DNA of 64,000 bases, from the NCBI GenBank assembly GCA_963835065.1, contig CAWIEK010000063.1, forward strand, positions 1 to 64,000, read 5' to 3'. Origin of the DNA: an uncultured Chthonomonadaceae bacterium. Lineage in GTDB: Bacteria; Armatimonadota; Chthonomonadetes; Chthonomonadales; Chthonomonadaceae. Of the stretch, positions 15,529-18,590 are shown piece after piece; the stretch's first letter is position 1, and the number at the start of each line of letters is the position of its first letter. The position numbers and the translations under genes were made by a program. A model generated the notes under the pieces. It saw only the letters and a list, made by a program, of their open reading frames with translations, made no database searches and was not told the origin of the DNA.

Positions 15529-17151
15529 TTAGGCGGCTGTCGCTGCCGCCTGCTTACCCTTGGGCGCTTTCGGCGCTTTGGGCGGCTTGGGCGCTTTGCC
15601 CGGCTTGCCTTTTTTCATGGCGTTGGCGGGCGGGGCGATTAAGGGATACGCGCCCAATCCGATGCTGACCGGGAACAGCACGGCAATGTCCTGCAGGTAA
15701 TCCGGCGATTGGTTTTTCGCAATCACATTCATGGTTTCCAAAGGATTGCCGATGCGGGCGGGAATACCCAACTGCTCTTCCAGAAACGGGGCCATGTTGC
15801 GCAGTTTGGCCGAGCCGCCCACAATCACCATTTCATGGATGGGCGCGTCACCCGTCTTGTTGCGGTAATAATCTATGGAGCGGCGGATTTCCTGCACCAG
15901 TTCGGCAAGGATGGGCGCAATGGCGTTGAATACGTTGATACGCATGGCTTCGCGGCCCGGATCGCCCGTCGGCGCGGCAACCGGCAGATTCGGGTCTGCA
16001 AACGGCATCGGGTCCGGCGCGGCATACGCGGTTGCGCCTGGGTTCGCAAAATCCGGCGTTGCGGGCGGCGTAAAGAAACCCGTCGCTTCGGGCGCGTTTT
16101 GAACCGGGTCCAGGCCAACGCCGGTCAAGTTATGCTGGTCGGCTTCGCCGCTGCTGAAGTCGAACGGCGTAGCGGCAGGCGGGGGCGGCGCTTCGCCCGG
16201 CGTGGAAAAGTCGAAGGGCATGCGCCCGGACGGCGAGGACGTGGGGCCGGTTCCGGGAACCGGAGCCGCCGGGTCAACGGGCAGGGGCGCAGGCTGGGCG
16301 GGATCGGTAAAGTCCATAAAGCCGCCGGGAGCGCCGAAGTCACCACCGCCGAAACCACCGCCCGCGCCACCAAATTGGTCGAAAGCCTGCGGCGCGGCCT
16401 GTCCCATGATTACTTCGCCCACGTCGCGCTTCATCTGCTCGGCTGTGGCAAGATCAACATGCAGTTCGTTGGCGATGGCGCGGGTAAAGTTGTCGCCGGC
16501 CAGGCTCAGGGTGCGCGGAAAGGCCAGCAGTTTGTCCCGGAAAATGGAGACGTCCGTGTTGCTCGCGCCGATATTGATAATCGCTACCGTGTGTCCCGGC
16601 GCCTGCGCGGTGGAGGGAATGGTCAGCAGCGCGCGTCCCGCCGCGAGCGGCTCTACGTCAATGGCTTTGGGCTTCAATCCCGCCTTGAACAGCATCTCGA
16701 CGTGGCGGTCAATCATTTCCTGCTGCGCGACGGCGAGGCATACTTCCATGTTCTGCCCATCGCCGTAGCCTTCGGGACGCGTAATGGGCTGGTAGTCCAT
16801 AACCACTTCGCTGGCATTGAAGGGAACCTGGCGCTCCACTTCCCACTTCATCGTTTCGGCGAGTTCCGCCGCGTTCATCTGTGGCACGTCAATCACGCGC
16901 ACGACGACGGCGGATTGTCCCGATACGCTGCTGATGACGTCCCCGCCGCCGATGCCGGCTTTTTTGAGCAACGCCTTGACCGCCTGCGCCAGCATTTGCG
17001 GGTCAATGATCGCGCTGTTTTCAAAGGCTTCTTGGGGCGTGGGCGCAACATCTAAAGACACGACTTCGATGCCTTTGCTCCCTTTGCGCACAGAAGCAAC
17101 CTTGATGAGATTGGAACCGATGTCCAAACCGATGTAGGAACCGCCTGCCAT
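15529..17151 (-). CDS. pilM: type IV pilus assembly protein PilM
   Basis: IGLDIGSNLIKV; KWEVERQVPF; AGLKPKAIDVEPLA; INIGASNT; EIRRSIDYY; long Pro/Phe-rich insertion. Confidence 0.93.
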   Translation of the reverse strand: MAGGSYIGLDIGSNLIKVASVRKGSKGIEVVSLDVAPTPQEAFENSAIIDPQMLAQAVKALLKKAGIGGGDVISSVSGQSAVVVRVIDVPQMNAAELAETMKWEVERQVPFNASEVVMDYQPITRPEGYGDGQNMEVCLAVAQQEMIDRHVEMLFKAGLKPKAIDVEPLAAGRALLTIPSTAQAPGHTVAIINIGASNTDVSIFRDKLLAFPRTLSLAGDNFTRAIANELHVDLATAEQMKRDVGEVIMGQAAPQAFDQFGGAGGGFGGGDFGAPGGFMDFTDPAQPAPLPVDPAAPVPGTGPTSSPSGRMPFDFSTPGEAPPPPAATPFDFSSGEADQHNLTGVGLDPVQNAPEATGFFTPPATPDFANPGATAYAAPDPMPFADPNLPVAAPTGDPGREAMRINVFNAIAPILAELVQEIRRSIDYYRNKTGDAPIHEMVIVGGSAKLRNMAPFLEEQLGIPARIGNPLETMNVIAKNQSPDYLQDIAVLFPVSIGLGAYPLIAPPANAMKKGKPGKAPKPPKAPKAPKGKQAAATAA

Positions 17152-17708
17152 GATTTGCTATCCTTAATTGTGGCTGCTATGGTGGCTGCCGCGTTCGGGC
17201 GTTCGGGAAAAGAGCGCCGGACGGGTCAGCGGGCATACGTTGGGAAATTTCGCGTTTCTGGTTTCATCCGAGTGGCGACGGGACGTCGGCAATCTGACCG
17301 ACAGGACGCCGACAATGCAGGGTATCGGATGCGGAATCACCGCCGCGCAGGAGGTCTGGAAAGCGCGTACAGGCGAGTGGTGGGTCTTTTGGGTACAACA
17401 CATCTTCATTGTATCCGTTTTGAACGCGCCTGTCAACTCCCCACCTGCCGCAGAACGGTATTTTTCACCGCCTGCCTGCAAAAACGCCGCGCCCCGCTGC
17501 GTCCCTTGCTATTCCTACCTCTTTTGTTGCGTATTACAGGCAAAGGGTTCACGCGCGTATTGGCCCTCAACCCCTAACCCTTAATCTGAAAGATGGGTAT
17601 TCAGGTGTTCGGGCATTTCCATACGGAGTGGCGAACGCAGTTCATAGAATTCTCTCTAAAGTTGGGAGCGGGGAACCTATGAAATAGATTCTTAAATTGA
17701 GCGAAACC

Positions 17709-18590
17709 ATGCTGACCTACAAGAAAATCACAAAAATCAAGCGTGTGCCCGTCCACACCACTGTTTACAATTTTCATGTGCCCGGCACGGAATCCTACCT
17801 TGCCAACGGCATTGTGACGCACAACTGTTACGTTAGCCGGCGGAAGGGCGCGGCGAACCCGATTACCACGTTTGTCAATATCGAGCAGATTTGCGGCTAC
17901 CTGGCGCGTCATGCGATGCGGCAGGGGGCAAAAACCGAACCTACGATGGCCGACGCGCATTTGTGGACGTATGAACTCGGAACCAACAGCGACTGCGCCG
18001 CCGACGCGCTGGTATCCGACAACATCAAAGACCTTGTCGCCCTGTACCGAACGCTTCCCAACGCCAAAGCGACGTTTGCCACCAAGTACGTCAACCGCGA
18101 CCTGCTCGGCTACGATCCGCAGGGCAAAACTCGGCTGCGCTTCAGCCTGATGCCGCCCCATGTCGCCAAAGTGGTGGATGTTCGCACATCTAAAGTGATT
18201 GACCGCATTACTGCCATCAATGATTTCGTGGAAGCCGGGTACGAAGTGAACGTCAACTTCGCGCCCGTGATTGTGTACGACGGCTGGCTGGAAGATTACG
18301 CGGAACTGTTTGTGATGCTCGACGACCATCTCAGCCCGCGCGCCAAACAGCAAATGGCGGCGGAAGTGGCGTTTCTGACCCACAATGAGGAACTGCACGA
18401 GGTCAACCTGGGCTGGCATCCCAAAGGGGAGGAATGGCTGTGGATGCCGGAAATTCAGGAAACCAAAATCTCCGGCACGGGCGGCAAGAACCTGCGCTAC
18501 AAGGTGAAACTCAAGCGGAAGTGGGTTGAGCAGTTCTGCGCCCTGCTGCGCGGAAAACTGCCCTACTGTCCCATCCGCTACGCCTTTTGA
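17709..18590 (+). CDS. C-terminal part of a spore photoproduct lyase-family radical SAM protein, preceded by a 39-aa intein C-fragment
   Basis: MLTYKKITKIKRVPVHTTVYNFHVPGTESYLANGIVTHN|CYVSRRKGAANPITTFVNIE; YELGTNSDC, FATKYVN, RLRFSLMP, AGYEVNVNFAPVI, CPIRYAF; in-frame TAG at 17685. Confidence 0.85.
   Translation: MLTYKKITKIKRVPVHTTVYNFHVPGTESYLANGIVTHNCYVSRRKGAANPITTFVNIEQICGYLARHAMRQGAKTEPTMADAHLWTYELGTNSDCAADALVSDNIKDLVALYRTLPNAKATFATKYVNRDLLGYDPQGKTRLRFSLMPPHVAKVVDVRTSKVIDRITAINDFVEAGYEVNVNFAPVIVYDGWLEDYAELFVMLDDHLSPRAKQQMAAEVAFLTHNEELHEVNLGWHPKGEEWLWMPEIQETKISGTGGKNLRYKVKLKRKWVEQFCALLRGKLPYCPIRYAF

Follow-up and report, generated by a model that had tools for sequence, protein, structure and literature searches.

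The C-half gene and its partner on another contig

The analysed window comprises the first 64,000 nucleotides of contig C63 of genome G000 (G000:C63:1-64000). On its + strand we found an ORF of 293 amino acids, starting with ATG at 17709 and ending with TGA at 18590 (Table 1). Its first 39 residues (MLTYKK...VYNFHV...SYLANGIVTHN) form the C-terminal part of an intein (IntC), and the Cys at 17826 opens the C-extein. A preliminary description of this DNA had proposed a basic peptide with intein blocks F and G at this place, and both properties were recovered: the intein_Cterm model TIGR01443 matched amino acids 19-40 of the C-half with 31.5 bits (cut-off 15.6), and IntC contained five K/R and one D/E, with a pI of 9.9 and a net charge of +4. 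The C-extein of about 254 residues, described as intact, matched TIGR03886 to the model end (422.3 bits for the C-half, positions 83-346 of 346). Intein-free relatives read GCxxxCxYCYV at the junction, in agreement with the earlier assignment of Cys+1 as the third ligand of the CxxxCxxC motif.

The frame-blocking TAG was confirmed in the window and in haplotig C32, which is about 98% identical over 27 kb and has the same IntC start. Read-through of this TAG was considered and rejected, since it would add merely ten residues and no IntN lies upstream. That side of the window is occupied by a divergent gene and contains no N-half, as described before; the divergent ORF itself was recovered, while its name pilM reflects resemblance only.

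The ribosome-binding motif before the ATG at 17709 is weak. The sequencing runs listed as containing this DNA include no RNA run, which has no bearing on expression. No sigma-70-like promoter was found on the + strand 5' of IntC, and the one site detected lies on the - strand (17436-17408). A purine-rich motif, located within repeat B, and an in-frame ATG-AAA-TAG (together 17664-17687) end 21 nt 5' of the IntC start. The ATG-AAA-TAG (17679-17687), whose last codon is the frame-closing TAG, looks like a chance occurrence; the two elements could aid reinitiation at the C-half.

Table 1. Features of the two half genes and of the sequences beside them (positions without prefix refer to the window)
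Feature	Position	Strand	Remark
Divergent gene, PilM-like (resemblance only)	15529..17151	-	start at 17151
Repeat B, candidate breakpoint element	17596..17678 (end approximate)		about 30 nt 5' of IntC start
In-frame TAG closing the frame 5' of IntC	17685..17687	+	shared with haplotig C32; bridged by independent contigs
IntC, 39 aa	17709..17825	+	basic; block F VYNFHV, block G His-Asn; TIGR01443 match
C-extein, 254 aa and stop	17826..18590	+	Cys+1 first; TIGR03886 SPL-family
N-half ORF, 254 aa	G000:C1:44454-45218	+	six-frame motif scan
N-extein, 162 aa, ends ...NGCSMACAY	G000:C1:44454-44939	+	SPL-family N-terminus
IntN, 92 aa, Cys1 and TAEH	G000:C1:44940-45215	+	acidic
N-half stop TGA	G000:C1:45216-45218	+	inside truncated palindromic repeat
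Palindromic dispersed repeat, left-truncated copy	G000:C1:45207-45290		provides IntN stop

A motif scan of all six frames of the genome for an SPL-like CxxxCxY-C followed by an intein N-terminus gave one match, on contig C1. The ORF found there fits the partner forecast in the preliminary description (an SPL N-terminus with GCxxxCxY, an acidic HintN and a stop), and its location on a contig other than that of the C-half bears out the proposal of two unlinked genes. The contigs that enclose the two halves are 225 and 269 kb long, which puts the halves at least 62 kb from each other even if these contigs abut. The split point corresponds to ...EVLC/DT/LTYK... of the contiguous copy in the congener G001, and the intein core is intact.

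The N-half matched TIGR03886 at positions 1-96 with 137.6 bits. The two halves tile positions 1-346 of this model; neither passes the cut-off (437.55) alone, and their rough sum is 560 bits, compared with 559.8 bits for an intein-free relative and 560.8 bits for P0100, a contiguous cluster mate. PF20903 had three matches in the genome, which is 92% complete, namely the N-half and two haplotig copies of the C-half, and no intact SPL-family copy was found in it. With the N-half on C1, a deletion remnant without partner is ruled out. A missing N-half, a mis-join or changed codon at 17685, and relatives with contiguous inteins only had been named beforehand as outcomes against a split gene; the N-half is present, independent contigs reveal neither a mis-join nor a change at 17685, and the relatives include many split forms.

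Intein type, host enzyme and position in the genome

IntN begins with Cys, which is invariant in the family, its block B TxxH is TAEH, and block G ends in His-Asn followed by Cys+1 (VTHN/C), as in class 1 inteins. In block F the class 1 Asp is replaced by Asn (YNF/HNF); 14 contiguous inteins of the family have the same Asn without exception, which marks it as a family trait and not as a sign of decay. IntN contained seven K/R and 15 D/E (pI 4.4, net charge -8). Separate ORFs with their own stop and start, matching exteins, a split in the endonuclease region and the pairing of acidic IntN with basic IntC confirm, as far as sequence features can, that the G000 pair is a real naturally split intein.

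In the family the mean charge of IntC is +3.15 in split (n = 33) and +1.0 in contiguous inteins (n = 25), kin not being independent; that of IntN is -8.3 and -6.6, respectively, and kinship overstates the p values. P0017 was counted as contiguous, and P0018 (ambiguous) and the unparsed N-halves P0059, P0068, P0076, P0087 and P0089 were omitted. A structure model of contiguous P0100 (mean pLDDT 76, pTM 0.58) matched SPL and mini-intein structures, and its HINT domain resembled the DnaB, RecA, NrdJ-1 and gp41-1 inteins with TM of about 0.8-0.88, values that belong to the contiguous mate and not to the split pair.

The PT-HINT model passes its own cut-off on the N-half, and databases label some halves as toxin HINT. 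A polymorphic-toxin HINT was rejected, as the domain sits in the CxxxCxxC of a conserved enzyme and intein-free alleles are common.

Judged by its profile match, the host is a TIGR03886 SPL-family radical SAM enzyme. Against TIGR04070 (spore photoproduct lyase) the halves reached 75.5 and 27.6 bits, far under the cut-off of 400, and the position of the H-donor Cys140/141 of that enzyme is Thr in G000 and Glu in a cyanobacterial relative. The host is not spore photoproduct lyase proper. In these two respects it differs from the nearest solved structure, the Geobacillus spore photoproduct lyase (PDB 4FHC series), which it resembles in sequence (E about 1e-20) and fold. Going by its family resemblance, the enzyme most likely acts on DNA damage by UV or desiccation. 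An SPL-family gene is described as UV-induced in a non-sporulating, desiccation-tolerant bacterium in the available part of PMC12029717, which fits a repair role of the host without proving it.

Contigs from two independent studies bridge 17685-17709 (X1 over 17596-17976 and X4 over 17539-17790, no joints being listed). The area 17400-17800, for which spanning sequence had been called for, is thus covered at the TAG and ATG without mis-join; this independent support refers to the C-half junction, a single piece over the whole 2.8 kb being absent. The assembly consists of 71 contigs with strain duplicates; 27 contig pairs have near-identical stretches of more than 2 kb in common (e.g. C32/C63, C57/C58), and it therefore includes strain haplotigs. 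C1 and C63 have GC contents of 57.3 and 57.7% and a tetranucleotide r of 0.997, both matching the composition of the genome.

On one contig of G001, the genes that flank the two halves lie at 3.13 and 4.74 Mb, with the whole SPL gene at 4.03 Mb, and the neighbours of the SPL gene common to G001 and G002 are on other contigs in G000. Both halves have thus moved off the ancestral site. Gene order in the genus is heavily shuffled.

Repeat B had seven genome matches at E<=1e-3 and 14 at E<=1e-2. It is built of short GGT(A/G)TTC(A/G) units and a hairpin, and at 17595 an additional unit of 15 nt is inserted in three other strains. The palindromic repeat at the N-half end had 82 genome matches, or 97 when the threshold was relaxed, spread over as many as 34 contigs; it is about 105 bp long, REP- or MITE-like with terminal inverted repeats, and both congeners have copies. 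The dispersed repeats at both breakpoints may have caused the relocation of the halves.

Alleles in relatives and the HNH trace

An SPL-family gene was found in five of the 60 relatives searched (G001, G002, G013, G024 and G031); with this patchy distribution the gene may be dispensable. G001 has the same intein in contiguous form, and the other four are intein-free, with G002 frameshifted. A sixth match among the 60 was an unrelated intein. In the G002 locus (L008, G002:C7:95500-96750) the frame is broken by three indels, and one of them coincides exactly with the intein insertion site; they are likely sequencing errors, and a repaired nuclease cut is possible.

Among the best 80 of 197 GTDB loci, 73 were intein-free, six contiguous and one broken. 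A junction pattern revealed 15 GTDB loci: five fractured (two Abditibacteriota, one Trueperaceae and two Rubrobacteraceae), nine contiguous and one chance match. With a stricter pattern we found ten metagenome loci, half of them contiguous and half with a stop before IntC; the nuclease was seen in three of these latter five, and two were too short. The only viral match was fractured and had an HNH gene. It lies on a 171-kb viral contig (L141) carrying the fractured SPL-family gene and the HNH gene in antisense, and such a virus is a possible vector across phyla. Unlinked halves were not found among the GTDB, metagenome and viral pattern loci, and the C-half had no match among 50,697 GenBank phage records.

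The fractured-gene arrangement of Dassa 2009 is present in L109, L113, L116, L118, L121, L128, L133 (truncated) and L141, and absent from G000. The fractured loci carry, on the strand opposite to the two halves, an intervening ORF of about 275 aa that overlaps about 270 nt of IntN. It encodes an HNH nuclease with zinc-finger-like cysteines and invariant HH, N and H residues, matched by phrog_144 in seven of seven cases and weakly by Pfam HNH_2 in five. In L109, L113 and L118 a single CATG contains the start codons of both this gene and IntC. In L133 (Rubrobacteraceae record) the HNH gene has lost its first half and the halves are still linked; this locus is an intermediate of nuclease decay. 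In L116 (Trueperaceae record) the fractured gene has a neighbour about 1 kb upstream of its N-half, which is another radical SAM gene of SPL-like type (GCPAHCQYCY). A short IntN tail was discarded as a marker of unlinking, for L121 and L141 are short-tailed yet keep the HNH gene.

The IntC junction had 41 matches in protein searches, and the IntN region had 56; parsing left 33 IntC that belonged to C-only proteins and 49 distinct IntN cores that belonged to N-only proteins. The halves of two cultured cyanobacteria, the Leptolyngbya strains DQ-M1 and FACHB-DQ100, differ by two in their accession numbers, which points to a single intervening gene; Leptolyngbya FACHB-17 is intein-free. A cyanobacterial intein-free allele is identical to a split one in 250/254 and 94/98 residues, and this fits the near-identity that recent homing or loss would give. 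The closest named relatives in the IntN tree are labelled Chthonomonadaceae. L080, from a record titled Vibrio cholerae, has an allele that scores like Arthrobacter ones and may reflect contamination of the record.

No HNH gene was found in G000 beyond an antisense trace over IntN. This antisense frame scored 62.7 bits with the HNH profile, compared with 6.2 +/- 6.9 in 300 synonymous recodings, none of which scored as high (z about 8); it contains one stop and its terminal stop is lost. Contiguous copies scored 92.5 in the congener G001, 68.2 in Abditibacterium and 0-24 (z -0.1 to 5.1) in the other 11, from Chloroflexota and metagenome loci. Since synonymous sites of the exteins are far diverged between congeners (dS 0.6-1.2), the antisense excess suggests that antisense constraint acted during a shared period, with the caveat of plain common descent of synonymous sites. 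The decayed trace indicates that G000 descends from a fractured state.

In the IntN tree, built from 74 rows and 89 columns and drawn at its midpoint, the fractured-type N-half P0046 was sister to the contiguous copy of the congener (98/96). The tree needs ten changes between split and contiguous forms, at least seven of them forced by supported branches, and being unrooted it gives no direction alone. We infer that the ancestor was fractured, that several lineages re-fused the halves, and that the G000 lineage lost the nuclease and became unlinked. L129 (Dictyobacter record, about 650-1750) has retained an antisense HNH gene directly upstream of a contiguous-intein SPL gene; the sense strand of this HNH gene still bears a relic of IntN that has decayed. 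The arrangement represents re-fusion caught in progress and suggests that the overprinted tail belongs to the nuclease.

Predicted trans-splicing, other explanations and known systems

It is probable that G000 builds one SPL-family enzyme from two unlinked genes by functional trans-splicing. The first gene encodes the N-extein, with two of the three cluster cysteines, and the acidic IntN, and the second the basic IntC, Cys+1 and the rest of the enzyme. The halves would associate by charge complementarity, form one HINT domain and follow the class 1 route, with N-S shift and thioester at Cys1, transfer to Cys+1 and Asn cyclisation (chemistry as given in the available part of PMC10663303). Splicing would produce CSMACAY-CYV and restore CxxxCxxC with its three cluster ligands, which would allow the [4Fe-4S]/SAM site to form. 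As to its history, a mobile cassette in which an antisense HNH gene stood between IntN and IntC and overprinted about 270 nt of IntN would have invaded the cluster motif; in the G000 lineage the HNH gene would have been lost and the halves carried apart, with dispersed repeats at both breakpoints, and in sister lineages the halves would have re-fused into a contiguous mini-intein.

Conservation speaks for functional halves. IntN and IntC together retain 31 of the 31 residues that are invariant in 14 contiguous inteins, and of the family-invariant residues only one of 85 has changed (F to Y). Codon changes found in G000 only were 14 synonymous to 3 non-synonymous in the N-extein and 25 to 3 in the C-extein, on a branch that includes the time before unlinking; the intein-free congener had 10:4 and 26:2. 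Proteins from other assemblies include the N-halves P0045 and P0102 with the same CFS end and the C-half P0101 with the same start. Both halves keep open frames, with 93-96% protein identity, in no fewer than two further assemblies; of the differences, 10/18 and 8/12 fall in the first 60 of 254 aa, a leader that is variable (binomial p of 0.003 and 0.002, the two not being independent).

A different explanation is that the pair is a recent relic, in which a fractured locus was torn by repeats, transcription of the C-half was lost and both genes are young pseudogenes. The repeats at both breakpoints, the missing + strand consensus promoter 5' of IntC and the lack of the SPL gene in most relatives searched would agree with it, and the C-half in fractured loci could depend on read-through from the N-half promoter. 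We regard this as unlikely, because the frames stay open in the further assemblies with differences mostly in the leader, the haplotigs differ by two synonymous changes and one non-synonymous, 84 of the 85 invariant residues are kept, and the antisense HNH frame has decayed over IntN whereas the sense frame has not.

It is highly improbable that the halves bind through the intein and work unspliced, with Cys1 of IntN as third ligand of CxxxCxxC. The N-half precursor does read CSMACAYC and gives a weak Radical_SAM match (E 0.012, below cut-off), and Aeh1 NrdA fragments are cited in PMC2677866, as far as that text was available, as assembling without splicing. However, Cys1, TxxH, His-Asn and Cys+1 are invariant in the family and would be needless without splicing, and the model of the contiguous relative suggests that HINT would occupy the active-site loop. 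An assembly or binning artefact (a mis-join, or halves from different organisms) is barely credible: the assembly is of metagenome type with haplotigs and has the halves on separate contigs, but the same junction occurs in haplotig C32 and in contigs of two independent studies, the N-half end is identical in two other assemblies, C1 and C63 agree in composition, their flanks map to one congener contig, and the break lies exactly at the natural split site of the family.

If trans-splicing takes place, the unlinked state might further be put to use, which we consider a rather doubtful proposal. The N-half precursor, its CxxxCxxC completed by the intein Cys1, would be held by a disulfide between Cys(-3) and Cys1 or by a bound metal as long as the cell is not reducing, and the two genes, regulated separately, would form an AND gate that turns on an oxygen-sensitive DNA-repair enzyme after desiccation or UV. 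In G000, Cys(-3) is close to Cys1, as in the MoaA redox trap (review PMC10663303, available part). Were the AND-gate reading true, intein-free, HNH-fractured, re-fused and unlinked alleles would form a complete living series of the origin of a split gene and its gain of regulation.

The available text of Dassa 2009 (PMC2677866) names the unlinked end state (step IV) only for cyanobacterial DnaE and the Nanoarchaeum equitans polymerase. These systems share with G000 the unlinked chromosomal genes, an acidic IntN and a short basic IntC divided at the endonuclease site, and the lack of an endonuclease. They differ in that the G000 host is a patchy radical SAM enzyme and not an essential replicative polymerase, that its junction is a metal-cluster ligand, and that close relatives keep intein-free, contiguous and fractured alleles. 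Read from gene structure, the unlinked G000 pair is the last step of the gene-breaking model of 2009, in a cellular repair-type enzyme. The intermediates are lost for DnaE and N. equitans, whereas here the proposed steps of endonuclease invasion, loss and unlinking can be followed within one small clade.

Fractured genes in the same source, as available, include gp41, IMPDH, NrdA, NrdJ, DnaE, ligase and terminase, mostly of phage; their loci are on the same strand with GIY-YIG or Vsr-like nucleases, and fracturing of inteins by HNH is there only predicted. G000 has the same split region, and its 92/39 aa are within the IntN/IntC ranges of 88-105/33-54; its relatives likewise have a free-standing endonuclease between the halves. 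Unlike those loci, the nuclease of the relatives is an antisense HNH overprinting IntN, such loci are spread over bacterial genomes from several phyla and one viral contig, and the halves of G000 are unlinked. The intein DNA holds a molecular fossil of the nuclease, and the family provides evidence for the reverse step, re-fusion.

Radical SAM hosts, as in G000, are also known for actinobacterial SplB/COG1533 inteins (NF038136, Rv2578c family) and the Pyrococcus abyssi MoaA intein, which differ in being cis-splicing and in belonging to other radical SAM families. In the available part of Novikova et al. (PMC4760082), 48 SplB/COG1533 inteins in Actinobacteria are listed and not called split. 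NF038136 matched the N-half across the extein-intein junction with E 3e-8, far below cut-off. We found no prior report of a split SPL-family intein in the open-access literature, including the available part of PMC11766414. The family is large, with 49 distinct split IntN cores, and is in part mis-annotated as toxin HINT; it gives protein engineering a new split intein that may prove orthogonal. The split form in cultured cyanobacteria, beside a 98%-identical intein-free allele, makes homing, trans-splicing and redox control testable.

Four further intein C-terminal motifs, two per gene, were found in two other genes of G000 (C49:533960-536303 and C53:324214-325263). The context of the first resembles ribonucleotide reductase, and a separate HINT-like match lies at C49:177301-177546.
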